From Clostridia bacterium (GTDB lineage: Bacteria; Bacillota; DSM-521; Neomoorellales; SLTJ01): a stretch of DNA of 64,000 nt. Shown in pieces: positions 1 to 14,333 of this stretch. The translations under genes and the position numbers were made by a program. Location of the stretch: NCBI GenBank assembly GCA_004347685.1, contig SLTJ01000024.1, positions 40,622 to 104,621 of the forward strand. Reading direction: 5' to 3'. Every line of letters starts with the position of its first letter. The first letter of the stretch is position 1. A model generated the notes under the pieces. It saw nothing but the letters and a program-made list of their open reading frames with translations. It was not told where the DNA came from and searched no databases.

Positions 1-245
1 GGGTCGGGAAACTTAAATTTCGTCTTGTATACAGGGTCAAGGTTGTTAAGGAACGATGCCGAAAAGACATCCCTGGAGGCATGCCCATCATCTTCATAAC
101 CCCACTGATTTCCATGTCCACCCGCCCGCGAGTTATATCTGAGAAACCGCGCACTACATTTTCCAAACATGTGGAGCAGCGCCGCGATCTCGCCCATGAG
201 GATGGCCTCTTTGTGCGCTTCAATCTTTTTTAAAAGATCATGCAT
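1..245 (-). CDS. Partial CDS (5' end only, runs off the window): possible Cas10/Cmr2-like type III large-subunit N-terminus
   Basis: Absent from the ORF track because it is truncated. My translation from the ATG at 245..243 (ATGCATGA overlap with the upstream TGA at 238..240) reads MHDLLKKIEAHKEAILMGEIAALLHMFGKCSARFLRYNSRAGGHGNQWGYEDDG... and stays open to position 1. AALLH-x-x-GK resembles the Cas10 HD motif (aLLHDiGK), but with HM in place of HD. Confidence 0.35.
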   Translation of the reverse strand, partial: MHDLLKKIEAHKEAILMGEIAALLHMFGKCSARFLRYNSRAGGHGNQWGYEDDGHASRDVFSASFLNNLDPVYKTKFKFPD

Positions 246-1374
246 GGTTGGCCGCCTCCTTCTTTTGGCCAATCAGGCGCTCTACCACCATCTCAAGATC
301 GGTAATATTGTAGATTTGTTCCTCGTAGGCCGCTATTTTGCCGGTACGCCGGCACACCCATTCCTTGCCGTGCTCCTGATACCAGGACTTAAAAGCTTCA
401 AAGATAGCTGTGTCGCCTTCGCGGCGTTTCCTATATTGGCTCTTGCTGAGAGGATTACCGTCGATACCAAGGTAATCACTTTTTACGGCGCCCTGGTCGT
501 CCATAAACTTAAGGAAGGCTACATCGGGTTCCAGGAAAGATTGCTGTCCGGCTTCACTTGTCAAGGCCCCTTTAATTATCAATTTTCCGTTTTCCGGGCC
601 CAGCTCGTTCTGCGCTATGCCCCAGCCGGCGGTTTTCTTAGCCGAAAAACCGTATTCCAGCAGCATGGCTTTTACTGCTTCCGCACTGGCCTGGAGGTCC
701 TCGACTATCTGTTCCGCAGACCAGTCCTTACCCCTGGGATACGGGATGTAAAGCAAGCAAAATATACCCTTTGTCCCTGCTGGGACGACCTCGATGTTGA
801 TTGGTGCCCGGCCCTGGACCGGGGTACGAGTATCACGGTATAGTGGCGTGGCCACCGCCCTGGCAATGTGGCCTTGTTCGTCTTTGCTAACGCTATCCCA
901 AAAAGTGGGGAAGAAGTGCAGCCTGCCGGCTTGTCCGCTCTCGCCCCCCCGGCTGGAGCCGAAAAGTCGGTTGATAGTCGTTTCTTCAATGCCCGCCATA
1001 CCCGCGGCAAAACGCAGATGCCCTTTCCAAGTGGTCGGCTGCACCAGAGGTAAACCGGTCAAGTGGTCCAGGGCGAGGGGGTTATGCATTTCCAACCATC
1101 TTCCTTCGCGTTCTTCAAAAGGATGAAATTCATCCTCAGCCTTGCTGCTAAAAGGTTTGGCCAAATTGAATTCAAGCCGCAAAAGCCAGGAACCAGCAGG
1201 CAACTCCTCAACATCGGCCTTGGTTGGCAAAAACCGGTGTAATTCAGCCCTCCATTCTTCGGCGGCTTTTTCAGCTTCAGAACGGAGCCGATTGCCGAGG
1301 GTGCGTTTCCCGTTTTCTGCGAAATCGGCACCCTCCTCAGTAAGGTACGCATCAAATATGCGCCTTTGCGCCAT
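238..1374 (-). CDS. cmr6: RAMP superfamily protein, Cmr6-like (Cas7 group), with a C-terminal extension
   Basis: 378-aa ORF. PTTWKGHLRFAAG, LFGSSRGGESGQAGRLHFFPTF and the later TAGWGIAQ glycine loops fit RAMP/Cmr6-type signatures. The ATG lies 9 nt after the upstream stop. Confidence 0.6.
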   Translation of the reverse strand: MAQRRIFDAYLTEEGADFAENGKRTLGNRLRSEAEKAAEEWRAELHRFLPTKADVEELPAGSWLLRLEFNLAKPFSSKAEDEFHPFEEREGRWLEMHNPLALDHLTGLPLVQPTTWKGHLRFAAGMAGIEETTINRLFGSSRGGESGQAGRLHFFPTFWDSVSKDEQGHIARAVATPLYRDTRTPVQGRAPINIEVVPAGTKGIFCLLYIPYPRGKDWSAEQIVEDLQASAEAVKAMLLEYGFSAKKTAGWGIAQNELGPENGKLIIKGALTSEAGQQSFLEPDVAFLKFMDDQGAVKSDYLGIDGNPLSKSQYRKRREGDTAIFEAFKSWYQEHGKEWVCRRTGKIAAYEEQIYNITDLEMVVERLIGQKKEAANHA

Positions 1375-1383
1375 GAGCCTTCA

Positions 1384-2622
1384 TCACCCCTTTCCTCCTT
1401 CAACAAGAAGCCCCATTATGTCTGCCGGATATAGAGCAATTCGAACGGCCAGGCCGCCTAAGGCTGCCTGCACTTCAGTTTTGAGCCGGTTCGTATCCGT
1501 AAGGAGCATACGTAGCGCCTTGTCTGCCTCGTTGCCGTCACGGGGTATAAAGCCAAAAATACGCATGGTCCACTGTTGGTTACAACTATCTCTATAAAGG
1601 TGGGTTACAAACACGTCAGAGCCTTTGGGACGATCCTTTGAGGTTTTATCTACAATCTTAAGGTAGGGATCACCCCAAGGCGAGTTGGTTGTCCCCATAA
1701 TCCGGTGCCTTTCGATGGCGAGAGTTTCTTCGTCATACCGCGAAAAGTTACTGGGGGCCCTTAGCCGTTGTCGCAATTGCGCGCGCACGGCCGGGGCGGA
1801 AGGCAGCCAGTTCGTCGTTGCTACCGGAAGCCACCGTCTATAGTTAGCAGTATTTGCGGTAAGGCCAAGCTTTGGCCAGATCTCTTCCGAAGTGAGCTTG
1901 GCATCCTCAAGGATAACCGTAGCTCCAACCAGATTTCTAATGTCCGGTAGGCTTATTGCCTTCTTTGAGGTGTCATTTTCTGTATCAGATTCATGGGCTT
2001 CTGGTTCCTGCTTCAGCCGCTCCTTTTTGTCCAAGACGTCATACCATTTATCAAAATCCATAGAGACTGGCAGGTCATCACCCCAATCCTTGACCCTGAT
2101 CACACCCTGTCCCTGGCTTGTCTTCGCCCCCAGTGCCCCATACCGCTCAATCAGACGAAGGGTATAGTGCAGGGAAGTCCTCTCTACTTCTCTCAGGCCG
2201 CCATGGCGCATGTGCAGCAACGAAAGGCGCAACGGTTCAGCACTTTTTTCCGCCGGGATTCTCCAACCACGGTGCTCGCTGCTGCCTGGATTACTGAGCT
2301 TTATCTCCAGCAGTTCGCCCGTATTGCTGTTGTTATCTTCACTAATTACCAGCCGGAACCGCCGGCTGTAGCCCGTGCAACCGAAGAGTTGGCAAGCCGG
2401 GCAAATGCTCGCCAGCTTACTTTTTCCATTATATAGACACGCTCTCTGGCTGGGGTCGCAGACATGAAACCCCAGCCCACGCAAGATGGCTTCATACCAC
2501 CACCTGAGGGAGCCCAAGATGCCGGTTTCCAAAATGTTTCCCCCTTTTTTCTCAGCATTTGCGGTCCAAAGGGGGGTAAGAAGTTCAATCTGTAACGGCC
2601 TTATTCCCACCTCATCCTTCAA
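1384..2622 (-). CDS. cmr1: RAMP superfamily protein, Cmr1-like
   Basis: 412-aa ORF. LLTPLWTANA..GSLRWWYEAILRG and CPACQLFGCTGYSRRFRL are Cmr1-type motifs, and a second RAMP-like half ends in MRIFGFIP. The track start is the TTG at 2622. The GTG at 2610 (after AAGGATGAG) is more plausible and lies 1 nt after the methyltransferase TGA at 2612..2614. Confidence 0.6.
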   Translation of the reverse strand: MKDEVGIRPLQIELLTPLWTANAEKKGGNILETGILGSLRWWYEAILRGLGFHVCDPSQRACLYNGKSKLASICPACQLFGCTGYSRRFRLVISEDNNSNTGELLEIKLSNPGSSEHRGWRIPAEKSAEPLRLSLLHMRHGGLREVERTSLHYTLRLIERYGALGAKTSQGQGVIRVKDWGDDLPVSMDFDKWYDVLDKKERLKQEPEAHESDTENDTSKKAISLPDIRNLVGATVILEDAKLTSEEIWPKLGLTANTANYRRWLPVATTNWLPSAPAVRAQLRQRLRAPSNFSRYDEETLAIERHRIMGTTNSPWGDPYLKIVDKTSKDRPKGSDVFVTHLYRDSCNQQWTMRIFGFIPRDGNEADKALRMLLTDTNRLKTEVQAALGGLAVRIALYPADIMGLLVEGGKG

Positions 2623-4804
2623 CTCCTGTTCTTGTCAACGCTTGGTCGTACCACATGAGGAGCTTGGGGTCTTCCTGGAGGACATTTTCGGGAATCTTGC
2701 GGGCTACGGTGATGATGGTGGCGTAGTCGCGCTCCTGCCAGGCCTTTTTGAACCCGGCGCGGACGGCCTCCAACCGGAACACCTTCAGGCGCTTTTGCTT
2801 GGATTCCCGGTACTCCTCAAACTCGCGCAGCAGGGCCCGCTCGCGCAGCTTTTCCAGGTCGCCGGCTTTATTCGGGTCGGGCACGTACCAGCGGTCCTTC
2901 GATCGAGTACTGAGTGATGAGGACTGAGGACTGAGTGAAGAGAACTGCAGAGCACCGTTTTCTTCACGAGCGCGACCAGAAGCTAGTTCCTCCTGGATGA
3001 TCTTGCGCATCTCTTCGCTTTGCTTGAGCCAGGAGATAATTTGCGCTGGTACCGGCCCCTGGCCGTCGTAGCGCAGGAAGTTCTGCTCCAGCAGCTCGGA
3101 AAGCTCCAGGGTTTTTTCGTGCTTCAGCCAGCCGCCTTGGGTTTCCCGCATGAACTGGGGCTGGAGTTCCTGGAGGGTCTGCGGCTTTTTTGTAAGCTGC
3201 TGCTTGAGCCATTGGATGGCCGAGGATTCGTCGGTGACAAAGAGTGAAAGCTGCAGCACCTCTTTCACGGTCATGCGCTTCTTGTCGTACTCAGCCACTT
3301 GGTCGGGAAGGAAATACATTCCGTCCCGCTCGGGGAAACGCTGGGTAAGCCCGGTGTAGAACTCGCCTGCAGACAAGGGAACGGTAACCCCGCGCTGGAC
3401 GTGGAAGGCGACCATGCGGTCAAAGAGCAGGTAGTTTTGCCGCTCGGCGATGACTTCAAGATGTTGTACAATGTCCAATGTATCTTGGGCAAGGTCGAAC
3501 TGACTCTGGACCTTGGACCTTGGACCGGAGACCACGGCAACCGGTAGTTGCTTAAGGTGGGTGCGAATGAAATCCCAGACGCCTGCTTCAGTACCTGCTT
3601 CTAGCTTGAAGCGTTCCTCAAGACCGCCGTTGGGCTTGTAGGCGGAGATGACAAGATCCTGCTTAACGGCGGTGCTAGTCACCTGGCGGTAGGAACCTTG
3701 CTGTTTATCCAGCGTTCGCACGTCGGCCACGACAAACCCGGCAGCCTGTATCGCCTCCTGAATGGCGTTCCAGACGGCGTTGCGCGAGTTGTGGAACTCA
3801 ATGGTTATCCAACGGCCTGGCTTGAGGACGCGATATGCCTCCGAGAAAGAAGCAGCCATTATACCTCCATATCGAGAGAGCGTTGTCGGGTTTACAGTCC
3901 GTGCTCTATGAACAACCGCCTCCACAGAGTCATTGGTTGCGATACGGAGCCACCCCTCCCAGATCGAATTGAGATCCGCATAAAAGAGATTGCCGCCGAA
4001 AGGAGGGTCCGTGAAAATGTAGTCTACCGATGAAGATGGAACCATGCTCAAATCGGTAGCTGACCCCGTTGTGATGGCGCATGTTTCATTGCGGGGAACC
4101 AGATTCCATGCTTGTGTAATATCTTGCGCTTTATCGGCGATTAGCCGAAAGGGGTTTTGCTCTTTTTGCAGACTCGGGATCGTGAGTTTTCCTTGTTGTC
4201 CGCCTCCTCCTCCGCTCCGATACCTGTACCTTTGAGAAGCCAGCCATTGACAGGACGTAAGAATAAAGAGAACTCCTTTTCGTGTAGAAAATGTGGGGAT
4301 TGAGCAGGCAATATCCCATATCCGGCCGAGGGTGATGAGATTACGTCGGGTGTAGAAATCCGAAACGCATACAATCCCTCGGAGGTGAAGGGCATCTCGC
4401 TTATATTGTTCGGAGTCTGGGTTGAGATTTAGGGTTGGGCATGATTTGGGCAGCGTATGTAGCGCTATCTTACGGAGTACCTCATGATCGCCGGGACTGA
4501 GTGGTCGAATTGACCTCCCCTTTCCTTTTCCAGCTTCCAATGCAATGGGTGCTTTCTTAATGCGCTTCACTTTAACGCCATGATGGGTAAACGCGGTCTC
4601 TATCTGCCTGTCAAGAGACGATTTCTTAAGATTCGCATTGCAGTGAGGGCACGAGAAGTTTTCCTGGACCGTTCCAGAGTCCTCATCCAGAGCTGCCTCC
4701 CAAAATATGATGTCGCCCTGACATTGAGGGCAGAAGAAGACGTCTGACCAAATAGTGAAATTGATTTCTGATTGAATGGATGGAGTACTTTCACTGATAT
4801 ACAT
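2612..4804 (-). CDS. pglXI: DNA methyltransferase, catalytic/C-terminal part (PglXI-like N6A/N4C MTase with Zn-ribbon insert)
   Basis: 730-aa ORF. Zn ribbon CPQCQG..CPHCN, catalytic motif DYIFTDPPFG, and a long helical C-terminus. The AdoMet motif is carried by the overlapping ORF 4791..5513 in another frame, so the two look like one gene of about 970 aa. Confidence 0.75.
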   Translation of the reverse strand: MYISESTPSIQSEINFTIWSDVFFCPQCQGDIIFWEAALDEDSGTVQENFSCPHCNANLKKSSLDRQIETAFTHHGVKVKRIKKAPIALEAGKGKGRSIRPLSPGDHEVLRKIALHTLPKSCPTLNLNPDSEQYKRDALHLRGIVCVSDFYTRRNLITLGRIWDIACSIPTFSTRKGVLFILTSCQWLASQRYRYRSGGGGGQQGKLTIPSLQKEQNPFRLIADKAQDITQAWNLVPRNETCAITTGSATDLSMVPSSSVDYIFTDPPFGGNLFYADLNSIWEGWLRIATNDSVEAVVHRARTVNPTTLSRYGGIMAASFSEAYRVLKPGRWITIEFHNSRNAVWNAIQEAIQAAGFVVADVRTLDKQQGSYRQVTSTAVKQDLVISAYKPNGGLEERFKLEAGTEAGVWDFIRTHLKQLPVAVVSGPRSKVQSQFDLAQDTLDIVQHLEVIAERQNYLLFDRMVAFHVQRGVTVPLSAGEFYTGLTQRFPERDGMYFLPDQVAEYDKKRMTVKEVLQLSLFVTDESSAIQWLKQQLTKKPQTLQELQPQFMRETQGGWLKHEKTLELSELLEQNFLRYDGQGPVPAQIISWLKQSEEMRKIIQEELASGRAREENGALQFSSLSPQSSSLSTRSKDRWYVPDPNKAGDLEKLRERALLREFEEYRESKQKRLKVFRLEAVRAGFKKAWQERDYATIITVARKIPENVLQEDPKLLMWYDQALTRTGVEG
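2905..2942. repeat. Low-complexity repeat inside the methyltransferase coding sequence, related to the 12116..12148 arm
   Basis: gagtactgagtgatgaggactgaggactgagtgaagag. The 18-mer tgagtgatgaggactgag (2911..2928) is identical to 12122..12139. In frame, it encodes SSLSPQSSSLST. Confidence 0.7.
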
Positions 4805-5513
4805 CCATCCGATCTCGTTTGACTTGCTTGATTATCTTCTTCAAGGAATGGTTTACTGAAGAGCTATCTGCAACACGGCAGTAGTTCGATGAAATGAATG
4901 TAGCAGCAGGAGCAAGGTCATTAAGTATCGGCCTCCTCGCCCCTATCTTTCCGATAACGATGTTATTCAAGTCCCTGATCAAGCCATCCGGCGTAACTTT
5001 GTAGCCAAGCGACTCGATAGTAAAACGTTCACCGCATAGCAGCGAGGCTACTCCCGTCATCCCGGTTCCACAGAACCCGTCAAAAACGACATCCCCCGGT
5101 TCGGTATAATGCAGGATGTACCGCATGATTGCCTTATGCGGCACCTTTGTATGGTAGGAGTGGGCGTTATAGATCGGGTCGTTCTTCCCCTCACTCACGT
5201 CCGCGGCAAACGGCTCACGGCCGTAAGGTATATTCGGGTCATACGGCTTGCCGTAGTACCTGATAAAATCCTCTATGAACGGGTTCGGGCAGGCGGTATA
5301 ATACGGCGGGTCGGACAGGGCCAGGATGTCCTCATCCGAGCCTATTGGGAGCCCCTCAATTTTGCGAAACTCCGGGTCCTTCAGCTTTTCTCGCAGAAGA
5401 CCAAGGAAATGTTCCCGCCGAGCGTTGTCATCTGGGAATGTCATCCCAAGGCATTCAACGGGACCGGTTGGCACGGTTCCTGTTTCGGGATTGAAAAGGC
5501 TCTCCATAGTCAT
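4791..5513 (-). CDS. pglXI: DNA methyltransferase, N-terminal part (AdoMet-binding region), frame-shifted relative to 2612..4804
   Basis: YHTKVPHKAIMRYILHYTEPGDVVFDGFCGTGMTG corresponds to the H-x-T-x-KP plus FxGxG region of N6_N4 MTases. The likely start is the ATG at 5513..5511, which overlaps the herA TGA at 5510..5512 (ATGA). The track start at 5582 would overlap herA by 73 nt. Confidence 0.7.
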   Translation of the reverse strand: MTMESLFNPETGTVPTGPVECLGMTFPDDNARREHFLGLLREKLKDPEFRKIEGLPIGSDEDILALSDPPYYTACPNPFIEDFIRYYGKPYDPNIPYGREPFAADVSEGKNDPIYNAHSYHTKVPHKAIMRYILHYTEPGDVVFDGFCGTGMTGVASLLCGERFTIESLGYKVTPDGLIRDLNNIVIGKIGARRPILNDLAPAATFISSNYCRVADSSSVNHSLKKIIKQVKRDRMDVYQ

Positions 5514-7252
5514 GCTCTGTTTTGCCTCCGCATATTTTCTACCGCTTTTGCGAAGTCCGGAGAATCCGGTTGTTTGCTCCATTCATCCCAGAAATCAATC
5601 GTGGCGCTTAGAGGTTTTTCGTTTGGCGGATGGATTCTAATACGGCTGGGTAACAAGACGGCATCGCCAACAACCAACGCCTCGCCAATGTCCAAAATCG
5701 ACAGTGTTTCCATCAACCCTTCCAAACTCTCCGGCATAAGTTTCCGGACTGTGGCTTGGTCGTCACCATTAGTTAGGCGAAGGGCTATCACATTGTTGCA
5801 TTGACTGAGGATTGTCGCGCTCACATCAGATGGACGCTGGCTGACGACAAGCAACGCAACCCCATACTTTCTGCCTTCTTTCGCTATTTTCTCGAAGTTC
5901 TCAATGGCACGTTGTTCGACGGGATTTCTGCCTTCCTTCTTGGGCAGGTACAAGTGCGCCTCGTCGCACACGAAAGCCATCGGCTTGCGTTTGTCGCGGT
6001 CGCTCCAGAATTGCACTTGATAGATGATGCGCGCCACAAGCCCCACAATAACCGGCAGGATATCTGCCGGGACTTCGGAAAAATCGATGACCTTGATTTG
6101 CGCTTTTGACCCGGAATAATCCATCAGCCGCTTCATCATGTCAGCCATAGAATCGTATTGGTTCTCTGATTCAGGTGATTGGAACAGAAAACCATAGCGC
6201 TTATCACTTACTTTACTATTGAGACGAGGAATCAAGCGATCAAACTCGCCGTTGAAAGGACCCTTTTTCTCGGTGTTAGGTTTTGCCCCTGGAACCATTT
6301 GCTCATTAAGTTCCTTAAGTTTGGCAATGACGTTTTGAATTGAAAAAGGGATTGGGCTATCGAGAGTAAATGCATTCAGCACTTCTTCCTTCTTGAGTAT
6401 TTCGAGCGTTTTTTCCTTCTCCGCGACAACTGTATCCTGAAATGCCATTACCTGGTTGTGGGCGCTGAATTCGCTACGGTCGATGAACATGGCCTGCATC
6501 TCCTCGGTATTAAGGAGCCAATAAGGTAAGTATAACAGCGATGGATCGTCTTTGCCCAATTCTTCCGGTCCTGGAATGCGCAAATGGCGTGCATAGGAAA
6601 GTTCTCGATATTCTCCGTGAAGATCAAATATGATCAGGTTCGCCGATGGGAGTTTCGCGGCTTGTTCAAGAATAGCTGCAACCGTCCAGGATTTGCCGGA
6701 TCCTGTGCTTCCCAAGATTGAGGCATGACGCTGAAAAAACTTGTTCCCGTCCAGATAGGCCGTTGCGTTCTCATCAATGGTATATCGGCCCATTTCCAGG
6801 GAGTGGGCAGTACAGCCTTCCACGGAAAGTAAGTTCATAAAAGCTTGCAGTTGCGCATCGCGCAGAATGTAGCATTCGCCGTCAATCTCGGGTACCTGAA
6901 CGAGAGAACGAGAAAAGCGTGGCCTACTATCTTTGTCTAGTCCAACCGTTCCAACCAAGGTTAGACGTACGGTATTCATTACGCTTTCTCGCGGCAGGAA
7001 CAATTCGGTTACCTCATCGGTGCCCTGTAATCCGGTATCTGTCTCGTCCTCAAGAACAGGTGTTTTTATCACCTTATCTATGATACCGATCAACCATTCC
7101 TCAAGAGCGCCAGGTAAGGCAAGAGCAACCAATTGGCCGACACGCGCTTTTCGTAAATCCTCATCGCTGTGAACCTGAATATTCACTCTACGAGTATCAA
7201 CAGTGCGGACCTTCCCTAGAGAATATGAAGCGTCAAAAGTAAAAAACGCCAT
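5510..7252 (-). CDS. herA: HerA-like (DUF87/FtsK-HerA superfamily) ATPase, partner of SIR2
   Basis: Walker A ILGSTGSGKSW and Walker B FVCDEAHLY, with a HerA-type N-terminal barrel region. I chose the start at ATG 7252 (AGGAGGGTAAAC upstream), 2 nt after the SIR2 stop. Confidence 0.8.
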   Translation of the reverse strand: MAFFTFDASYSLGKVRTVDTRRVNIQVHSDEDLRKARVGQLVALALPGALEEWLIGIIDKVIKTPVLEDETDTGLQGTDEVTELFLPRESVMNTVRLTLVGTVGLDKDSRPRFSRSLVQVPEIDGECYILRDAQLQAFMNLLSVEGCTAHSLEMGRYTIDENATAYLDGNKFFQRHASILGSTGSGKSWTVAAILEQAAKLPSANLIIFDLHGEYRELSYARHLRIPGPEELGKDDPSLLYLPYWLLNTEEMQAMFIDRSEFSAHNQVMAFQDTVVAEKEKTLEILKKEEVLNAFTLDSPIPFSIQNVIAKLKELNEQMVPGAKPNTEKKGPFNGEFDRLIPRLNSKVSDKRYGFLFQSPESENQYDSMADMMKRLMDYSGSKAQIKVIDFSEVPADILPVIVGLVARIIYQVQFWSDRDKRKPMAFVCDEAHLYLPKKEGRNPVEQRAIENFEKIAKEGRKYGVALLVVSQRPSDVSATILSQCNNVIALRLTNGDDQATVRKLMPESLEGLMETLSILDIGEALVVGDAVLLPSRIRIHPPNEKPLSATIDFWDEWSKQPDSPDFAKAVENMRRQNRA

Positions 7253-7254
7253 GT

Positions 7255-8355
7255 TTACCCTCCTAATATTTCTTTTGTAAACTGTGAGATATCCCAAAGG
7301 ACCTTTTCAGGTATGGATAGCCAGTTTGCATACATTTTGTTAAATATGCGTGTTCCGTTACTGTTTGCTTCCTGTGATTTGCAAACAAGCCATAGATTTG
7401 CGGCCTGTAAAAGCAAGGATTCGATGCGAGGATTGGAATCCCGAGTGATAATCAGCCCTGCACAGCCCTGATTTACGAGTTTGCGCTTTATGTACTCTTC
7501 AATGTGCTTATCATTGAAGCCATACCCAAGGAAAAGAAAATGGTGTTCCCGCTCAATAGCGATATCGGCCTTGCTTAGAAGTTCTTGCCTATAGCGTTGC
7601 AGTGTTTCATACTTCGATAAGCCCGGAGTAATCATGACCCGTTGAGCGAAATCGGGTGGATTCCACATCCAAGCATTATTTTCAATCACCACTCCCTGAT
7701 GGAAAAAGTAGTTGAGAGAGCCATGAACTTTATAGAGCCGGACGTGCTTCCGGTTTTTATACGTTGGTTTCATTTTCCCTCGTTGGTAAACTCGTTCGGG
7801 GGATAACAAGGCTCGTTCCACAGCATCCCAATCGATTCTACGCTCAACCCCTCCGACAAATCCGTTTGTATACGGAATGCCAGAGTGATCACAGGCATAT
7901 TCAAACAACATGTCGTAATTCGGTGTGAGAACATGCAGGATTCTGTCGCCTTCCGGAAGTCCACCGACTAGTCGCTTCAGAAAGTGGGTCGCGGGCCACT
8001 CGATTTCGCCATTAGCAATTCGAAAAGCGTACTCGCGGTCAACCGAAGCAACAAAGCACCCTGTAATAGCAGTGATTTTCTGCAACAAAGCGTAATCAGA
8101 AACGCCATCTAAAGCGGATTCCAAATCTGTCCCGCTCCGAAGAGATTGCATAACTCTGTCCCATTCCTCTTGCTGTGTTCTTTTTAGCGAATGTCCGTTC
8201 ATCTGACACAAGAGTTCATCTCTTAGGGCATCCATCCCAAATCGATTGTCCAAAGCGCAAGACATTCCTGTACCAAAGAAAACAAATGGTTTCTCTCGGA
8301 AAAAATTTCTTAGCGCTTCGGCAGCAATATTATAGGTCAAATCGTCTTTACACAT
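7255..8355 (-). CDS. SIR2-like (SIR2_2) NADase-family defence protein
   Basis: FFGTGMS, TPNYD, KVHGS and FLGYGFND motifs match the SIR2_2 layout. The ATG lies 3 nt after the brxC-like stop. Sits directly upstream of herA, as in SIR2-HerA antiphage systems. Confidence 0.75.
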   Translation of the reverse strand: MCKDDLTYNIAAEALRNFFREKPFVFFGTGMSCALDNRFGMDALRDELLCQMNGHSLKRTQQEEWDRVMQSLRSGTDLESALDGVSDYALLQKITAITGCFVASVDREYAFRIANGEIEWPATHFLKRLVGGLPEGDRILHVLTPNYDMLFEYACDHSGIPYTNGFVGGVERRIDWDAVERALLSPERVYQRGKMKPTYKNRKHVRLYKVHGSLNYFFHQGVVIENNAWMWNPPDFAQRVMITPGLSKYETLQRYRQELLSKADIAIEREHHFLFLGYGFNDKHIEEYIKRKLVNQGCAGLIITRDSNPRIESLLLQAANLWLVCKSQEANSNGTRIFNKMYANWLSIPEKVLWDISQFTKEILGG

Positions 8356-8358
8356 ATT

Positions 8359-10224
8359 TCACTCCAATACAATCCGGACTTTTCCGGGTTCTTTGCCCTT
8401 GGTGAGTTGCTCCAGGTATTCCTCAAACCTCTTCTTCATCTCCGCCGGGGTGACCGGTGAGCCGCCAGAGAGCAGCGCCGCGCGCAGGTCGGCAGTCTTG
8501 ACCGATACCTTAAGCAGCCCGGAGAGCACTTCTTTTAGGGCGTGGATGAAATCCTGGTCAAGGTCGTCCGGCAGCGAGCGTTTTTTGATGAAGCCGTCTA
8601 CCAGCTTCCGCGGCTCGGGCTTGAGCAGATCCAAGTTGGCCCGCGTAGTCGGGTCCTCCAGGTTGGTAAGAAGCGTCTGGGTCCAGTTCTCCACCAGCTT
8701 GTCGAGCTCCTCGTCCAGACCGTCCAGCACCGAGCTTGCCGGCGCCGCCGGTGGTTCCGCGGCAGGCTTGTAGTTGCAATGCGGACAAACGGGCGAGGCG
8801 TCAAGGTCCGGCTCGGTGAGCGCGAAGCAGCTCTTTAGACCCGCCAGGCGGTTCTGGTAATCGGTCAGGTGTTGGCGGGGCATGAGGTCAATAGTGGAGA
8901 GTTTTTGCAGGACTTTCAATCGTTCATCCCCCATGAGCCTGGCTTTAGGCTTATCCTCGTTAACGCCCAATCTCGCCTTGGTGTGTAATCCCAGGTACAC
9001 CTGCAGGTAGGCTTTTTTCAGGTCAGAGAGCTTGCGCTGAGTCTCCTGGCGGAAGGCTGCCGCGCCGCGCTTAGCTGGGTCGCCGATCTGTCCGAGGACA
9101 TCTTCGCGCACCGCCTTCATCTTGTCCATCCACTCGTGCCCGCCGGGCAGAACCGCCTCGGCCGTGGAAAGATACGCTGCCATGACCCCGAGGCCGGTCA
9201 CCAGTTTCTGAAGAGAATCAATCTCTTCCAAGGCCTGAAGCCCGTCGCGATGGCCGCTCACCTCTTGGGCTTCGTAACGGAAGTTCTTGAGCTTACCGGG
9301 AGATGTATAGGCCTGGATTGATTCCAGAAAGGTCTTGGTCTCATTAAGCTGGGAGCGCAGCTTCTGAACTTCACTCTCGGCCAGTAAACTCCGGCCCCAG
9401 AAAGACAGGCCTTTTTGCACGCTCTGATGAACAAGTACTAACCTTTCCACCGTGCTGGTTATTGCTTTCTGCAGCTCGTGAACGGGTTCTTCTTTCCCCT
9501 GGGTGACCAGCTGCGCCATGCCTGGTGTGAGCCTGAGCAGCTCAAACAGGGCCTTCAACGCCGGCAGGTTCCAGTCTTTAGGCCGCTCGATGTGCTTGAA
9601 CTGGGTCAGTTCCTCGACGCCGGTCCCGGCCAGTTGGGGAAGCCCTGTGGCGTCGAACTTCTTGCCTGGAATGGCCAGTACCAGCTCGCCGGAGTAAACC
9701 AGTGCCGCCAGGACCACCACGGCCCATTCAGGCTCCAAACGCAGGGTCTGCGGGGCCAGGTATTCCACCCCGAGGATGTCTTGGATCAGCTCAGAGCGGT
9801 TGACCACTTGGCCGGGGCCCTTCTTTTTCGCGATGTCGAGGATGTGCTGGGCGTATTTCGAACGATATGGATCAAGCCTGTCGCCGTCGAGAAGCTCAAG
9901 GGCATCCAGCACCGCGGTTGCTTGCTTGGTCGGCTTTTGCCCCGCGATGGCCCGCAGCGCGTCCTGGGCGGCCTGGGCCCGGTTGGCTCCGGTGATGAGC
10001 ACCGAGAAGCAGGGGTATTCAGGAGCCTGGTCCTGGAAGTACGCCCCGAAACAGATACCGGCGATGGTGTTTATGAGGTCGCGAAAGTTGATCCGCTCGT
10101 TAGGGGCAATGCCGGAAAGCTCGCGGATTGATTTACCCTTGGCCCAATCAACGAGGGGCTTGGTACGCCCCTGGTAGGTTACCTCGAAGGCCGTAATCAT
10201 GTTTTCCCGCAGCCACTGCACCAA
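8359..10224 (-). CDS. brxC: BrxC/PglY-like giant ATPase, C-terminal half (downstream of an in-frame TAG)
   Basis: Same frame as 10366..12087. Codons 10365..10225 are open and read [47 protein letters not shown], running straight into the track ORF. Contains CPHCNYKP and ends in GKVRIVLE. Confidence 0.6.
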
Positions 10225-10365
10225 TTCCCGCAGGAAGCCCGACGCCTTGGATTCATAAACGGACTTGGCCTGCCCCGAGGCGGTGGAAGCCAGATCAAGG
10301 GCCGCGGCATACCCCCGCAGTACTGTGTGAAAGGCTTCATCCTTGTTTATAAGACGCAGGAATAC

Positions 10366-12087
10366 CTAGTCGGGCTTCTTTTCATCCGTGAAGCGCGGCG
10401 CATCGAAGGGCTGGATGAAGTAGAGGTAGAAGTCGCGTGGCGGAACGGCTGTGGAGCGCTCGTTGGGCGCGCCGAAAAAGAGGTACCCCTGGCGCGCGGC
10501 TTTCCGCTCCAGCCATTCCAGCTCGTGTTGCCAGATTTTATAGCCGGTGACGTAGGTCTGGTCTGTGCACTCCATCACCCGTTTCAAGGCCTCGTAGTAG
10601 TAGCGGTCCAACTGGGAGGCATCCAAACTCTCGGCGCGCTTTTCGATCAGGGCGTCGAAGTCATCAGTCTTCTTCAGGTCGAGGTAATACTGGCGGTTGT
10701 CCGGGTTCGATGAGATAAACTGGCCACTCACCGTCTTGTGTATTTCCCGCAGGACAGTTTCCACCTGGGAAAGCAAATCGTCGGCCGGATCGCCGCCCAG
10801 GTCCTCGATGCCGGGCTGGTAGAGGCAGAGGCTGTCGCGCAGTTCCTCCGCCGTTGCGCCCAGAGGGGCGTGGATATCGCCTGTAGTCAACCGGTGAACG
10901 GATAAGGCATGGACCAGCCGCAGCGCCATGGGCTTGTAGGCGGGCCGGGTGAAGGCCTGCTGGATGCGGGCCTCCAGCACCTGGCTGCAGTCGATTACCG
11001 CCTTGATGTCCGGCACTGCGCGGAAGGAGGAGTTTTCACAGAGGTTCAGCCAGTAGCTGTCGTAGGCGATCAGCCCCGGGCGGTCGTCCGGGATATCTTG
11101 ATTAAGCAACCTCTTCATGGATAGGGAAAGGGTCTTGAGCACCTCGCGTTTCTCCGCCGCGGTGACCCGCTCAAAGGTGTCAATGTAGTCGGGATGCACC
11201 GGGAAGAGGCGGACAAACTCGTCCATGCGCTCATTCATGCGCCCGTAGAACTTTGAAAAGGGAGTCAGGTATGCGCGGATTTTCGCCTGCTGTTCGCCGG
11301 TTTTTTTGAGAAGCCGCTCGGATACCACGAACTTGACGTCCTTGCGCGCAATCAGGATTTGCTCGAAACGGTCCTTGACCCGGCGGATACTGTCCGCCAC
11401 GAAGGAAAAGCGGGGGCTGTCAAAAATGGCCTCCTGCACACCGGCGATAAAGCGGAAGCGCAGGTCCTTGCAGACTTCGCCGATCTCCCGGAGGAAGTTC
11501 AGGTCGAGGATAAGTTCCTGATCTTTGCGTGTGCGGAGGTAATCGAGCAATTCATCCACCACCAGGAGCAGGCCATGGTCAGGGTATTCCTGGTGGAAGG
11601 CGGACATCATCTCCTCGAAGGCCCTCTTGTTGTTGGATACTTGCGCCGCTGATGGGAATGTGTAGGTCACTCCTAAGGCCGCCAGGTGCCCCTCCAGTTC
11701 AGCCACTAGGATGTCACGCAAGGACATAGTGGTCGCCCCGATTTCGGTTCGCACCACCTTGAAACGGCCTCCGATTTTGCCCGCGGCGCTGGCAACGTGG
11801 CTATCGTTAAGATGGGAAGAAAGTTCCCCGTTCTCCGCTACGGCGGATATCACCGACATTAGATGAGACTTACCAGTACCGTAGTTGCCGACGACCAGCA
11901 GCCCCTTGTTATCGGTCGGCTGGTCAAACTGAAGCTGGGGAATGACGAGGTTTATCAGCCTCTCAGCCATCTCCTGGGAGATGACATAGGTCTGGACAAA
12001 CTGCCGGGCGGCGGCGGCTTCGTCGGCTTCCCGCAATTGCACTACGGACTCGATAGGTTCGAACTGGATTAGGTCTCCATATTTCAT
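10366..12087 (-). CDS. brxC: BrxC/PglY-like (DUF6079-type) giant ATPase, N-terminal P-loop half, ends at the in-frame TAG 10366..10368
   Basis: [23 protein letters not shown].., Walker [10 protein letters not shown], Walker [12 protein letters not shown]. The start ATG at 12087 is preceded by GGGGGGAACGCG. The first 27 track codons derive from a repeat arm. Confidence 0.65.
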
Positions 12088-12115
12088 CGCGTTCCCCCCA
12101 TGCGGTTTTGCCTGT

Positions 12116-12191
12116 AAGTGATGAGTGATGAGGACTGAGTGATGAGTGTATGTGTCTTTCCTAATCACCCATCACTTTCCACTCATCACTT
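12116..12191. repeat. Low-complexity inverted repeat (perfect 12-bp arms) spanning the brxF stop and the brxF-brxC spacer
   Basis: aagtgatgagtg (12116..12127) is the exact reverse complement of cactcatcactt (12180..12191). The arms are built from gagtgat/gaggact units. The right arm encodes the last codons of brxF. Confidence 0.75.
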
Positions 12192-12660
12192 CTGATTTCT
12201 CCGGACTAACGATCAGCAAATCACTGATCACGTATCGCCGGTATTCAGGGTGTTCCGGCATGGCATAGGTCAAATGGCCACTGTTGGCAGATCCGTTCCA
12301 GGCCACGACCAGCGTCTTGTTTCGTGAAAGTCCTTGGAGGAGCCGCAGAGGGTCCTGTTTGAGGGACACATCAAACAGCAATTCAATGTTATCGAGCAGA
12401 ACCAGGTCACCGCCAGCAGCGTTCACGATCTCTGAGAGCAGGCGGGGAAGCTGCAGTGCCCGCTGGCGCCCGGTGAGTTCAAGCAGGCGGCGAGACAACT
12501 CCAGATTGACGTTGATAAGAGGCGCGCCCGTACGTTCGTGAATATCTTGAAGCGCGGTTGTTTTCCCCGCTCCGGCTGGGGCCACTATGATGATGAGGCG
12601 GTGGTACAGCTCGGCAGCCAGGCCAATTCTATGTATTACCTGATCCGCAAGAATCTCCAT
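12172..12660 (-). CDS. brxF: BREX type 3 small P-loop protein BrxF-like
   Basis: 162 aa. Walker A APAGAGKTT, then NVNLELSRRLLEL and LLDNIELLFD..DPLRLLQGLSRN, matching the BrxF pattern as I recall it. First gene of the island operon. Confidence 0.6.
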   Translation of the reverse strand: MEILADQVIHRIGLAAELYHRLIIIVAPAGAGKTTALQDIHERTGAPLINVNLELSRRLLELTGRQRALQLPRLLSEIVNAAGGDLVLLDNIELLFDVSLKQDPLRLLQGLSRNKTLVVAWNGSANSGHLTYAMPEHPEYRRYVISDLLIVSPEKSEVMSGK

Positions 12661-13522
12661 TTTACTTCATCCCAAGAATCTTGTCACAACAGTTAGTGAC
12701 GGTATATACTCCTTCGGTAAGATTTCCCGTAATCCTGCTACTCAAGGTCCAAACTCTTTGCACTCCGGCCAATGGTGGCACATCTACTTACATGGCAACG
12801 GGAAAACGTTCCGCTTCATTAAACCTATACCCTCAACCCAAATAGCCGCCTTAGAAACGAGAACCAGTAGGGAGATTCCCACTGCCCTATCGAAGAAATG
12901 ACAGGGGTCCCGTTTAGAACCGGCAGAATTTGTATGGCAATGCCAATTTGCAACCCCCAATTTTTCTGCGACTGTTCTGTTCAATGGCCTCGGTTGTGCG
13001 CAGCCGCCGCCTAATCGAACCCGGCTCAGGACATTATCGCCATCGCGTCATGCACGTCCCCTGGCTGAAATCATGGGTATTCCCGGCGGTGATTCATAAA
13101 TAGTCTCTAGCTGATCGGTCGTACAGCCCTTGCCAGATAAGACCTGTTCTTGATCACCTGCGCCAAAAATTCTTCCCCGCCGCGCAGGGCGAGGCTTAGA
13201 AGGATTTAGCGCATCCCCTTACCCTCCCAGTTGCCAGGTGATATCTTCGCCATAATATTCCTCATTTCCTTCCGGCGGCATGGTCGCGAAGAGATTTTCC
13301 CATTAGGCCTCATCACAGACAAGACAGGTCACTTTGCCTGCATCCTCGTCCCACAAATACTGGTCCCGCGGGCGGATGGTACCCCCGCACTGGCCGGCTT
13401 TGCCATAGGACTAGCCTTCTCATCTACTTCCCGCACGTCGGTTACCTTGGATTTTGGCTTTTTGGACATAAAATGGCCCTCCTTGTAGTAGCCAGCGACA
13501 ACCTTGGACGCCATGCCTGAAA

Positions 13523-13798
13523 ATGGCGATAGTAAGCAAGCTGGCGGCAATTATGGGTGAACGTGGGATAAGGCATATCAGTGGGCTTTCTGAGCAAACA
13601 GGCATAGCGAGGAGCACTCTTACAAAGTTGTGGTACAACAGGGTTAAGGGAGTTACCTTTGATATGCTGGAGAAGTTATGTGAAGTCCTGGAGTGCCAAC
13701 CCGGCGATTTGCTGGTCTACGAGCCCGACAACGCCCAGGACGGCCAGCAGGGCACTGACTGGGCTAGGAGCAGAAAGGTGAGGAACCAAGAACGGTAA
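13523..13798 (+). CDS. XRE/Cro-C1 family helix-turn-helix transcriptional regulator
   Basis: 91 aa. LSEQTGIARSTLTKLWYNRVKGVTFDMLEKLCEVLECQPGDLLVY is a typical short XRE HTH. Confidence 0.7.
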   Translation: MAIVSKLAAIMGERGIRHISGLSEQTGIARSTLTKLWYNRVKGVTFDMLEKLCEVLECQPGDLLVYEPDNAQDGQQGTDWARSRKVRNQER

Positions 13799-13803
13799 GG
13801 GAG

Positions 13804-13998
13804 GTGGGTACAGTGTATGCCTACTTTGACGTGGAGCGGGCGGCTAGCGAGGCTGGATTAGCCCCCGAAGTCCTCAAGCAATTGAAAGAGGAGACCAGGC
13901 GGGAGTTTCCGACGGACCAGATGATGTACGAACTGCACTTGCTACGGGCGGTGAAGGCCGCAAAAGAGAAAGCAGGAGGACGGCCTGCCGTTACCTGA
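13804..13998 (+). CDS. Small hypothetical protein downstream of the XRE gene
   Basis: 64-aa ORF starting 5 nt after the XRE stop, with AAGGGAGG upstream. The GTG at 13813 is an alternative start. No motif recognised. Confidence 0.35.
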   Translation: MGTVYAYFDVERAASEAGLAPEVLKQLKEETRREFPTDQMMYELHLLRAVKAAKEKAGGRPAVT

Positions 13999-14069
13999 GC
14001 CGGGAGCGGTGGCGCAGTATGTCACGGTGGGGCGCAGTAGCCCCCGAACCCTGAAACCCTTGTCAAATC

Positions 14070-14145
14070 TGGTGAGCCATCCGGGACTCGAACCCGGGAC
14101 ACCCGGATTAAAAGTCCGGTGCTCTACCGGCTGAGCTAATGGCTC
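14070..14145 (-). tRNA. tRNA-Lys (anticodon UUU), CCA encoded
   Basis: Hand-folded reverse complement: gagccat/atggctc acceptor stem, anticodon loop CTTTTAA, T-arm ccggg-ttcgagt-cccgg, 3' ACCA. Confidence 0.9.
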
Positions 14146-14162
14146 ACTTGTTCCTTATCGGC

Positions 14163-14236
14163 TGGCTGGGGCGGCTGGATTCGAACCAACGATGGCGGAT
14201 CCAAAGTCCGCTGCCTTACCACTTGGCTACGCCCCA
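14163..14236 (-). tRNA. tRNA-Gln (anticodon UUG), CCA encoded
   Basis: Reverse complement tggggcg...cgcccca-g-cca. Anticodon stem gcgga/tccgc with loop CTTTGGA, and a T-loop ttcgaat. Confidence 0.85.
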
Positions 14237-14240
14237 GCGC

Positions 14241-14318
14241 TGGGGTGGGTGAAGGGAGTTGAACCCGCGACCTCCAGGGCCACAACCTGGCGCTCTAACC
14301 AACTGAGCTACACCCACC
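14241..14318 (-). tRNA. tRNA-His (anticodon GUG) with G-1, CCA encoded
   Basis: Reverse complement ggtgggtgtagctcagttggttagagc.. Anticodon stem ccagg/cctgg with loop TTGTGGC, extra 5' G, 3' ..cacccacccca. Confidence 0.85.
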
Positions 14319-14333
14319 ACCGATTACCTTGCT

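Follow-up and report, generated by a model that had tools for sequence, protein, structure and literature searches.

The 64-kb window analysed here (the whole stretch of DNA examined), from a Clostridia MAG, very probably carries a BREX type 3 phage-defence operon that adjoins a tRNA cluster and holds SIR2-HerA and type III-C cassettes in cargo slots, a known pattern and not a new composite system. The defence genes of the window lie on the minus strand in the order brxF, brxC, sir2, herA, pglXI, cmr1, cmr6 and the 5' end of cas10, and their families were assigned by HMM (PADLOC, Pfam, NCBIfam). The region likely covers the first (5') two-thirds of a defence island on the chromosome, for which the BREX type 3 operon (brxF-brxC-pglXI ... 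brxHII ...) would be the scaffold. The locus was compared with 80 BREX-3 relatives and with a second assembly, a 22.7 kb Logan contig of SRR7821207, which agrees with the NCBI MAG assembly in locus structure. The main features are:

14070..14317 (-), cluster of tRNA-Lys, tRNA-Gln and tRNA-His at the island boundary
13523..13798 (+), Cro/C1-type HTH gene, 91 aa (Pfam HTH_26, 78 bits)
12172..12660 (-), brxF, 162 aa, P-loop protein of BREX-3, opening the gene row
12088..12171 (-), brxF-brxC spacer, 84 nt
8359..12087 (-), brxC, DUF6079 / BrxC-PglY ATPase of BREX-3, with one premature stop
10366..10368 (-), in-frame TAG in brxC, at a conserved Glu position (nonsense change from GAG)
7255..8355 (-), sir2, 366 aa, cargo slot 1
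5510..7252 (-), herA, 580 aa, SIR2-HerA cassette
2612..5513 (-), pglXI, BREX-3 N6_N4 methyltransferase, frameshifted
4791..4829 (-), pglXI frameshift site: K-Q-V-K at 4829-4818, an extra c at 4817, E-I-G-W-M-Y at 4816-4799
1384..2610 (-), cmr1-like RAMP gene (Cas7 group), first III-C gene, cargo slot 2
238..1374 (-), cmr6-like RAMP gene
1..245 (-), cas10 (type III-C), 81 codons from its start; the full product on the extended contig L001 has 1007 aa

The HTH gene is divergent to brxF, 860 nt upstream of it, and is possibly a local regulator. The Logan contig ends at the tRNA-Lys/Gln/His cluster, past which the G+C content is approximately 62%, up from 52-58%; by module it is approximately 60% in brxC, 46-48% in sir2-herA, and then 55%. 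Extension past position 1, proposed in a first-pass annotation of this DNA, yields on L001 the rest of cas10, then cmr4, cmr5, cmr3, five small genes and approximately 40 first codons of brxHII, with an HTH-M78 peptidase gene and PIN toxin-like genes past cmr3. That annotation had also raised the prospect of an array or further BREX genes there: the brxHII 5' end (an N-terminal Tudor segment) closes L001, 3.5 kb past cmr3, and no CRISPR array was found in the 64 kb plus 9 kb (73 kb) searched.

Sequence comparison indicates that the brxC/pglXI and pglXI/brxHII junctions are variable cargo slots. Slot 1, from brxC to pglXI, holds the two-gene SIR2-HerA cassette of the window, and slot 2, from pglXI to brxHII, the six-gene III-C module. 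The brxC-pglXI gap is below 250 nt in 15 of 66 relatives and 0.4-4.8 kb in the others, and the gap from pglXI to brxHII or pglZ ranges from 35 nt to 9.7 kb (71 relatives). Inserts are nearly all co-oriented and very diverse; the commonest, Schlafen+HATPase+wHTH (30 loci), is the top slot-1 occupant in the relatives, and others include OLD/GajA-like (Gabija-like), GajB-like, NsnB, HEC-02, Ppl, PDC-S02 and PDC-S28. Most relatives carry other cargo or none at both slots. Such diversity fits the 'auxiliary and backup effectors' that sit embedded within BREX loci (PMC12839542). The cassettes may be autonomous systems riding on transcription of the host BREX operon and swapped through recombination in the conserved termini of the BREX genes on either side. 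Recombination scars are seen in L073 (a second pglXI 3' end, with 92% amino-acid identity to the window allele), L017 (repeated brxHII 5' ends), and L001 and L003 (HTH_M78 3' fragments); the brxHII 5' end in L001 could be a scar like the repeats of L017.

The sir2 product matches PADLOC SIR2 PDLC04086 (500.8 bits) and Pfam SIR2_2, contains both catalytic motifs, NYD and VHGS, and weakly matches the Sir2 chains of Sir2-HerA structures 8yhx and 8j4u/8sxx in the PDB. The herA product matches PADLOC HerA PDLC04105 (761.4 bits) and Pfam DUF87 and HerA_C, contains Walker A (GSTGSGKS) and Walker B (VCDEAH) motifs, and matches PDB HerA chains 9c1m and 8ziq at 283 and 259 bits, respectively. By homology, the pair would act in abortive infection, with Sir2 as an NADase that depletes NAD+ once activated by a HerA hexamer. 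L059, whose BREX-3 is intact and complete, has the same insertion with junction sequences near-identical to those of the window and 87% nucleotide identity to positions 12101-4996, and a distant SIR2-HerA occupies the other slot of L056. Homologues with 66-77% identity are free-standing in L088 and L090. The cassette also lies inside an SNF2/MTase/ResIII operon (L089) and, flanked by hsdS and hsdR, in a type I R-M operon (L092/L093), nested there with overlaps of 4-8 nt with the host genes.

The cmr1-like product matches TIGR01894 cmr1 (61.6 bits, cut-off 28.65), Pfam RAMPs (58 bits) and PADLOC Cmr1/Csm3, and the cmr6-like product PADLOC Cmr6 PDLC00988 (152 bits), PDLC01535 (III-B/III-C, 145 bits) and Pfam RAMPs. 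The Cas10 N-terminus in the window matches PADLOC Cas10c (E = 2e-8), and the full proteins of L001 score 522 (Cas10c CAS-III-C), 173 (Cmr4), 92 (Cmr5) and 215 bits (Cmr3), giving a complete III-C effector module, cmr1-cmr6-cas10-cmr4-cmr5-cmr3. A GGDD/GGDE motif is absent from all 1007 aa of Cas10, and because this cyclase motif is missing, the protein most likely performs crRNA-guided RNA binding and cleavage, possibly with an HD domain, and not cyclic-oligoadenylate signalling. There is no array, cas6 or adaptation gene near the module (no cas6 within 73 kb), so its crRNAs would have to come from an array elsewhere in the genome. The nearest Cas10 relatives (L083-L086, 48-54% identity) have no BREX genes within 7.5 kb; CRISPR arrays are found at L083 and L085, and in L085 the III-C genes are nested in a type I-D operon adjoining cas6, cas1, cas2, cas4 and the array. 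A different III-C lineage (25-39% identity) occupies slot 2 of L019, L042 and L067, upstream of pglZ-brxA or brxHII, and the III-C module of L043 (Cmr1 and Cmr6 matched before the locus end) begins right after brxA. As judged from these relatives, SIR2-HerA and III-C are each an independent, mobile cassette. The repeated capture of III-C modules in BREX-3 slots is mildly novel, and more than slot promiscuity may lie behind III-C capture (at least two divergent lineages) together with SIR2-HerA capture (two lineages).

Among the BREX core genes, brxF matches NCBIfam NF033453 BREX_3_BrxF (194.8 bits, cut-off 50) and PADLOC BrxF (243.9 bits). The first-pass annotation had listed the genes correctly, save that brxC is not one ORF: the in-frame TAG splits it into two parts that share one reading frame, covering positions 1-570 (1139 bits) and 619-1231 (846 bits) of PADLOC PDLC02482 and matching Pfam DUF6079 at 1043 and 766 bits. 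The TAG position is Glu (GAG/GAA) in 56 of 59 relatives and Asp in 3 of 59, and TAG is an ordinary stop in this genome, since it closes 20 of the 52 long ORFs of the window. BrxC shares 92-95% identity with its L017 counterpart, and the Logan assembly of SRR7821207 has the same split. For pglXI, the two frames reported earlier are real, covering positions 2-236 (359 bits) and 241-917 (923 bits) of PADLOC PDLC02541, and reflect a true frameshift at approximately 4817; the N-terminal frame stops at TGA 4791-4793, the C-terminal frame holds GWMY, the zinc-finger TRD and the HTH domains, and relatives read KEVEDECGWMY here in a single frame. Nucleotide homology to the TRD region (4996-3457) was sought in the relatives and found in none. 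Because of the premature TAG and the frameshift, BREX-3 is probably non-functional in this genome, and both lesions appear to be recent.

It is unlikely, if conceivable, that the cassettes are nested cargo in a functional BREX-3, the lesions being minority variants or consensus errors, or bypassed by read-through, re-initiation (TTG 10224/ATG 4804) or split active proteins. The source is a MAG, within which the lesions might be population variants, but the NCBI MAG and the Logan contig both carry both of them, TAG is in regular use as a stop, and the pglXI frameshift site is not a long homopolymer. The flanks of each lesion are still fully conserved (the residues around the TAG are identical to L017), so no further decay is seen at either. 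Candidate restart codons lie shortly past each lesion, but restart in brxC would lose 47 conserved BrxC residues, and in pglXI it would split the protein within the methyltransferase fold, ahead of the TRD insert. In L067 both of these genes carry true lesions of independent origin, which also argues against a functional BREX-3. Of 5 III-C-bearing loci, 2 have both genes disrupted, vs 0 of approximately 53 others, a mildly novel coincidence that the cargo model leaves unaccounted for.

The junctions read as follows:

brxC/sir2: brxC TGA, AAT, sir2 ATG
sir2/herA: sir2 TAA, AC, herA ATG
herA/pglXI: ATGA overlap
pglXI/cmr1: pglXI TGA 2612-2614, cmr1 start GTG 2610 or TTG 2622
cmr1/cmr6: 9 nt
cmr6/cas10: 8-nt overlap, ATGCATGA

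All are as the first-pass annotation had them, its description of operon-like packing was right, and HMMs place the ORFs in the families it named (BrxF, BrxC/DUF6079, SIR2, HerA, PglXI, Cmr1, Cmr6 and Cas10c). In the brxF-brxC spacer, the heptamer AGTGATG is repeated (4.6 copies, 12117-12148), and the brxC ATG at 12087 is preceded by a GGGGGGA ribosome-binding site. A consensus scan for promoters and terminators gave a result no better than shuffled sequence; from the gene arrangement, co-transcription of the BREX and cassette genes is plausible. Tight or overlapping junctions are the usual seating of cassettes in host operons and not evidence of functional fusion, since nested cassettes overlap hsdS by 8 nt in L092 and the SNF2 gene by 4 nt in L089.

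The first-pass annotation had instead proposed a new composite system. That the nine genes form one integrated, undescribed system under translational coupling, in which BREX-3 recognition/modification, SIR2-HerA NAD depletion and RAMP/Cas10 cooperate and RAMP genes replace brxHII, pglZ and brxA, is very improbable. Co-orientation, the gaps or overlaps of 1-9 nt at six junctions, the lack of any convincing internal terminator and the brxC-sir2-herA-pglXI arrangement kept in L059 would suit it, but each module occurs alone or in unrelated host operons, and the same slots carry dozens of other cargo families or nothing. III-C does recur in BREX-3 loci (L019, L042, L067, L043), as does SIR2-HerA (L056); the III-C module of the window is, however, nearer to non-BREX modules (48-54% identity) than to other BREX-nested ones (approximately 25%). 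BREX-embedded effectors have been argued to be a functional back-up layer (PMC12839542). The BREX partners that an integrated system would need, brxC and pglXI, are both disrupted at this locus. As reported earlier, brxHII, pglZ and brxA are absent from the 64-kb window (tblastn); RAMP genes do not take their place, since III-C precedes brxHII or pglZ in L019, L042 and L067 and the brxHII 5' end is present here too. The annotation had named independent loci in relatives, with separate promoters, as grounds against its proposal; synteny shows slots with diverse cargo or none and cassettes that occur elsewhere, and the claim fails because the modules are independent units there.

An assembly chimera, in which a metagenomic bin joined BREX, SIR2-HerA and CRISPR fragments of different organisms, is barely credible: the source is a MAG and G+C content shifts across the modules (60% to 47% to 55%), but an independent assembler gave an identical 22.7-kb contig, the brxC/sir2 and herA/pglXI junctions recur at nucleotide level in L059, another organism, the pglXI/cmr1 adjacency recurs in L019 and L042, and the junctions fall exactly at stop/start codons with ribosome-binding sites.

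BREX type 3 reportedly has the order brxF-brxC-pglXI-brxHII-pglZ-brxA (Goldfarb et al. 2015). The nested-cargo locus resembles it in having BrxF, a DUF6079-type BrxC and PglXI in canonical order (domain analysis PMC12839542), the last carrying HTH domains at its C-terminus and a zinc-finger TRD as an internal insert, along with the N6_N4 MTase fold. It differs in the nonsense codon of brxC, the frameshift of pglXI, the foreign DNA between brxC and pglXI (2.8 kb) and between pglXI and brxHII (approximately 11 kb), and in that the sequence searched holds no pglZ or brxA and only the first codons of brxHII. Modules embedded inside BREX include PARIS, GmrSD/BrxU, Shedu, HEPN and Schlafen-kinase (PMC12839542). 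As in such BREX operons and in type I R-M operons with nested defence genes, the cassettes share the orientation of the core genes and are inserted among them with minimal spacers, and slot content differs between close relatives, whose commonest slot-1 occupant is the Schlafen+HATPase+wHTH protein of PMC12839542. That survey has 0 occurrences of SIR2 or Cas10/RAMP, whereas this locus carries SIR2-HerA and a type III-C effector module of six genes; a literature search found no paper on SIR2-HerA or III-C combined with BREX-3.

In the SIR2-HerA anti-phage system, the Sir2 NADase is activated in a HerA-Sir2 supramolecular complex (PMC11514289). The cassette resembles this system (structures 8sxx, 8yhx, 8wld) in being a sir2-herA gene pair separated by 2 nt, with strong PADLOC subfamily matches, catalytic Asn/His and Walker A/B motifs, and the same gene pair in homologues of other genomes (66-77% identity). 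It differs in that its Sir2 is only distantly related to the studied proteins (PDB E-values 1e-12 to 1e-6), its scores fall under NCBIfam equivalog cut-offs, and it lacks its own promoter region here, because sir2 starts 3 nt past the brxC stop. Type III-C has a Cmr-like effector and a Cas10 with an inactivated cyclase domain (Makarova et al. 2015 classification, via PMC6013697). The module of this locus shares its gene order (cmr1-cmr6-cas10-cmr4-cmr5-cmr3), a Cas10 and Cmr5 that match III-C-specific PADLOC models, a Cas10 lacking GGDD and the lack of cas1 or cas2. It differs in having no array or cas6 within 73 kb and in lying inside a BREX-3 operon; its closest relatives have arrays nearby or lie in a type I-D locus.

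Profile searches assigned all open reading frames in the minus-strand row at positions 1-12660 without ambiguity, and the families proposed by the first-pass annotation (BrxF, BrxC, SIR2, HerA, PglXI, RAMPs and Cas10) were upheld by the profile HMMs.

Genes of the minus-strand defence row in the window
12172-12660, minus strand: BrxF (NCBIfam NF033453, BREX_3_BrxF; 194.8 bits against a cut-off of 50)
8359-12087, minus strand: BrxC, DUF6079 type (PADLOC, 1139 + 846 bits)
7255-8355, minus strand: SIR2 (PADLOC, 501 bits)
5510-7252, minus strand: HerA (PADLOC, 761 bits)
2612-5513, minus strand: PglXI (PDLC02541, 359 + 923 bits)
1384-2610, minus strand: Cmr1-like (TIGR01894, 62 bits against a cut-off of 28.65)
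238-1374, minus strand: Cmr6-like (152 bits)
1-245, minus strand: N-terminus of a type III-C Cas10

On direct reading, the junctions are all as tight as had been described: brxF and brxC are separated by 84 nt, brxC and sir2 by 3 nt, sir2 and herA by 2 nt, and cmr1 and cmr6 by 9 nt, herA and pglXI share an ATGA overlap, cmr6 and cas10 overlap by 8 nt, and the pglXI-cmr1 spacer is 1 nt provided that cmr1 starts at the GTG at 2610. Ribosome-binding sites are located within the preceding genes of the row, and the brxF-brxC spacer contains a tandem heptamer (AGTGATG, 4.6 copies, 12117-12148). A promoter and terminator scan of 1-14500 gave counts equal to the shuffled expectation and is uninformative on operon structure. 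A divergent Cro/C1-type HTH gene (13523-13798) lies 860 nt upstream of brxF. A tRNA-Lys/Gln/His cluster (14070-14317) marks the boundary of the island; GC climbs to ~62% there and the Logan contig covering the same locus breaks, and no integrase was seen on this tRNA side. Positions 14500-64000 are ordinary chromosome (~62% GC), where a large flagellar cluster (FlhA 43615-45672, FliK 54019-56184, FliF 59782-61335) is found along with pyruvate:ferredoxin-oxidoreductase-like and F420-type oxidoreductase genes, and 46 of the 52 long ORFs of the whole window are on the minus strand.

The Logan contig of SRR7821207 (L001/L002, 22.7 kb) was used to extend the locus beyond the window edge. Its Cas10 has 1007 aa and matches PADLOC PDLC01314 ('CAS-III-C effector_LS') over its full length (522 bits), and is followed by Cmr4 (173 bits), Cmr5 (92 bits, III-C model) and Cmr3 (215 bits). 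Together with the genes in the window these form a complete type III-C effector module, cmr1-cmr6-cas10-cmr4-cmr5-cmr3, which we take to be the gene order of the subtype. A sequence search of Cas10c against the PDB returned no match. Five genes follow cmr3, namely a 76-aa ORF, an HTH + M78-peptidase gene, a DUF3368/PIN gene, a 90-aa ORF and a PIN gene, and the final ~120 nt of L001 encode the N-terminal Tudor segment of BrxHII (~40 residues; 45% identical to BrxHII of the canonical BREX-3 locus L020 and closely similar by eye to those of the relatives L073 and L017), so that the BREX-3 operon resumes ~3.5 kb past cmr3. The absence of brxHII, pglZ and brxA from the window, as first reported, was confirmed by tblastn; PglZ and BrxA also have no match in L001, which stops at the brxHII start with only the first ~40 residues of that protein. 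Deletion of the 3' half of the BREX operon, which was considered as an explanation, is weakened by this brxHII 5' end. The contig extension suggested by the first-pass annotation thus yielded the remaining Cas10, cmr4, cmr5, cmr3 and the start of brxHII, and no array. More widely, no CRISPR array (Rfam, TRF and direct-repeat searches), cas6 or adaptation gene was found in the 64-kb window or the L001 extension; III-C modules are commonly without a local array (PMC6013697).

The HTH + M78-peptidase (ImmA/IrrE-like) gene, usually paired with DUF3368/PIN, is found repeatedly next to BREX-3 and type I R-M islands (L001:17229-18765; L073:2858-3919; L092:2002-3378) and is 94% identical between the window island and Moorella sp. 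UBA4076; it may have a regulatory role or act as a toxin-antitoxin-like companion.

To place the two sets of non-BREX genes, 80 BREX-3 loci from species-representative genomes were retrieved with the C-terminal part of PglXI, and the window proteins together with BrxHII, PglZ and BrxA of L020 were mapped onto them. GTDB representatives contain at least 428 BREX-3 loci. The brxC-pglXI gap (slot 1; 66 loci) is shorter than 250 nt in 15/66 and 0.4-4.8 kb in the rest, and the gap from pglXI to brxHII or pglZ (slot 2; 71 loci) ranges from 35 nt to 9.7 kb. Genes within both gaps are nearly all co-oriented with BREX and belong to dozens of unrelated families. The commonest cargo is a Schlafen(AlbA_2) + HATPase_c_4 + wHTH protein of ~540-650 aa, which 30 loci carry, mainly in slot 1 (e.g. 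L044:7503-9131), and further occupants include OLD/GajA, GajB-like helicases, NsnB, HEC-02, Ppl, PDC-S02, PDC-S28 and HD/dGTPase-like proteins. In close relatives the positions are empty or filled with unrelated genes, slot 1 being reduced to a 36-nt spacer in L003 and L073. Because these gaps vary and hold unrelated co-oriented genes, we interpret both positions of 'foreign' modules in the window as the two habitual cargo positions of BREX-3.

The slot 1 cargo is a SIR2-HerA pair in which SIR2, with its catalytic Asn/His motifs (NYD, VHGS), stands beside a HerA with Walker motifs (GSTGSGKS, DEAH), as read in the sequence, and both proteins match solved Sir2-HerA components. In this family HerA-dependent activation of the Sir2 NADase leads to abortive infection (PMC11514289), and by analogy the pair in the window likely acts as a HerA-activated NADase that depletes NAD+. 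The cassette has a GC content of 46-48% vs ~60% for brxC. The same insertion is present in a Bacillota MAG (L059) at 87% nucleotide identity, continuous over window 12101-4996 and near-identical at both cassette boundaries, and there BREX-3 is intact and complete (single-ORF brxC and pglXI, then brxHII, pglZ and brxA). A distant SIR2-HerA pair (28-33% identity) occupies the other slot in L056, directly after pglXI. Genomic context was examined for four homologues of the window SIR2 (66-77% identity): two are free-standing pairs (L088, L090), and two are embedded in operons. In L089 (5158-15334) the neighbours are an SNF2 helicase gene on one side and an N6_N4 MTase/ResIII pair on the other, and there is an overlap of 4 nt; in L092 (3566-16256, and L093) the cassette separates hsdS from hsdR in a type I R-M operon and overlaps hsdS by 8 nt. 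The nested cassettes of L089 and L092/L093 are 66-70% identical to that of the window; the L092/L093 operon also contains Fic and an OLD-like ATPase/DUF4276 pair. Judged by these contexts, SIR2-HerA is an independent cassette.

The III-C module is likewise found in other operons. A metagenome scan with the Cas10 of the window locus gave five relatives, four of which have the whole six-gene module (41-67% identity over the six proteins; Cas10 48-54%), and no BREX genes were found in their available flanks. Two of them (L083, L085) have CRISPR arrays with 37-nt repeats, and in L085 (2000-22873) the module is nested in a type I-D operon between cas5d and cas3, in the order cas10d-cas11d-cas7d-cas5d-(PDC-S05)-[III-C]-cas3-cas6-cas1-cas2-cas4-array, the array having at least 25 repeats. 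A different III-C lineage (25-39% identical) occupies slot 2 of three BREX-3 relatives (L019, L042 and L067, the last with a Cas10c of 537 bits), followed by pglZ-brxA in L019 and by brxHII in L042 and L067. In a fourth (L043), Cmr1- and Cmr6-like genes begin 45 nt downstream of brxA, close to where the locus ends. Capture of array-less III-C modules by BREX-3, in or beside the pglXI-brxHII slot, has involved at least two divergent lineages across the window locus, L019/L042/L067 and L043. None of L019, L042, L067 and L043 has a local CRISPR array; short tandem repeats in L067, L043 and L059 were rejected as CRISPRs. L067 has GTCACGG-type heptamer repeats after brxC (8622-8677) and inside pglXI (9852-9906), the latter encoding an insert, HGSTGHESTGHGS. 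Since it is found both in a type I-D operon and in slot 2 of BREX-3 relatives, the III-C module behaves as a compact cassette without an array that settles in the operons of other defence systems. The RAMP genes had been thought to stand in place of brxHII, pglZ and brxA; in relatives III-C is inserted ahead of brxHII or pglZ, and here too the 5' end of brxHII follows.

An intact BrxC and an intact PglXI (PF01555 type, with an inserted TRD) are expected of a BREX type 3 system, and in this locus both genes carry lesions. The family match of BrxC is unambiguous, but the gene, first described as a single ORF, has an overlooked in-frame TAG at 10366-10368. The site encodes Glu (GAG or GAA) in 56/59 relatives and Asp in 3/59, the TAG differs from the relatives' GAG by a single G-to-T change, and both flanks are perfectly conserved, with residues identical to the closest relative. 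Recoding of TAG (e.g. as pyrrolysine) was rejected, as TAG terminates 20 of the 52 long ORFs in the window and relatives have Glu at the site. Because relatives encode Glu, the flanks are intact and this genome uses TAG as a regular stop, we interpret the codon as a recent GAG-to-TAG nonsense mutation. The two frames noted for pglXI reflect a real frameshift at ~4817, where the sequence reads K-Q-V-K, an extra c, then E-I-G-W-M-Y, and relatives read KEVEDECGWMY in one frame. A recombinant break point was considered as its cause, since nucleotide homology between the window and L059 does end within pglXI, at 4996; a chimeric gene is unneeded, as the TRD insert, which is generally hypervariable, begins at 4996, and over the conserved 3' parts the gene resembles every relative to the same degree. 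At the nucleotide level the insert (3457-4996) matches none of the 80 relatives, while identity is 79-88% in the methyltransferase and C-terminal HTH parts on either side; this suggests that the specificity domain turns over rapidly, as has been described for Type-3 MTases.

Owing to the brxC nonsense codon and the pglXI frameshift, BREX-3 is probably inactive in this genome. That the lesions are artefacts, or are bypassed, is conceivable for a MAG, and unlikely here: both are also present in the Logan assembly of SRR7821207, and an independent pair of genuine lesions affects the same two genes in L067 (a brxC frameshift at L067:6030, and in pglXI a TGA for a Cys of the CPxC zinc finger at L067:10043-10045). 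A 100% identical SIR2 protein is on record from the NCBI MAG 'Clostridia bacterium' (D9V47_05580).

Among scorable relatives, brxC is broken in 4/58 and pglXI in 2/75, and only L067, a III-C carrier like the window locus, has both genes broken. Both are thus broken in 2/5 III-C-bearing loci vs 0/~53 others, in a count that is post hoc and small. Together with the capture of divergent III-C lineages, such a count could mean that III-C modules are linked specifically to BREX type 3 and are not random cargo, which we consider quite improbable; if true, it could reflect functional replacement, incompatibility between BREX-3 activity and III-C, or reuse of a dead BREX operon as a platform for cargo expression.

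The first-pass annotation had proposed a new composite system in which BREX, SIR2-HerA and III-C act as one, and had named synteny in relatives as a check. That check went against the proposal: relatives have the modules separately, in variable slots or in other operons, and the three occur together in no other locus among 80 BREX-3 relatives, 5 III-C relatives and 4 SIR2 contexts, so that they are never co-inherited as a set among the loci compared. With every module independent elsewhere, both slots variable and the supposed BREX partners broken in this very locus, a single integrated system is very unlikely. A chimeric assembly joining the modules can in practice be dismissed, since an independent assembly shows the same structure and other organisms have identical junctions.

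The arrangement is best explained as a BREX type 3 operon serving as scaffold, with slot 1 occupied by SIR2-HerA and slot 2 by the III-C module, HTH-M78 and PIN genes. SIR2-HerA and III-C would each be autonomous and probably transcribed with the host operon; sir2, which starts 3 nt past the brxC stop, has no room for its own promoter. Cassettes were probably exchanged via the conserved ends of flanking BREX genes, as three kinds of apparent scar suggest: duplicated gene-end fragments that look like recombination scars lie beside cargo as a second pglXI 3' end (L073:12700-12966, 92% identical to the window allele), as repeated brxHII 5' ends in L017 (16825-16974 and 18155-18306; three such ends in all) and as HTH_M78 3' fragments (L001:16908-17054; L003:12103-12303). 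Given the nonsense codon, ~2 kb of brxC upstream of sir2 would be untranslated or translated only after re-initiation, and the resulting polarity could lower cassette expression. The crRNAs of the III-C complex would have to come from another part of the genome; without GGDD, the complex would work by RNA targeting, possibly with the HD domain, rather than by cyclic-oligoadenylate signalling.

BREX type 3 operons thus have two fixed cargo slots acting like small defence-island hotspots, which can accommodate as much as a six-gene CRISPR effector module, or an abortive-infection pair that depletes NAD, at junctions as tight as those within an operon. Genome scans call for caution here, as tight coupling of defence genes is not evidence for a new composite system.

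Literature searches gave no description of BREX nested with type III-C or of SIR2-HerA nested with BREX, and neither SIR2 nor Cas10/CRISPR effectors occur among the BREX-embedded effectors of a 2026 survey (PMC12839542); matches to 'type III-C' in CoCoNuT papers appear to be CoCoNuT subtype names and not CRISPR. No GGDD/GGDE motif occurs in the 1007-aa Cas10, in keeping with the cyclase inactivity attributed to subtype III-C (PMC6013697). The 2026 survey (PMC12839542) describes a 'Schlafen RNase fused to a minimal histidine kinase and wHTH' as a back-up effector embedded in BREX, and the commonest slot cargo of the relatives is that Schlafen-kinase-wHTH protein. The locus adds one more example to this known pattern, in which defence cassettes sit within a BREX operon.
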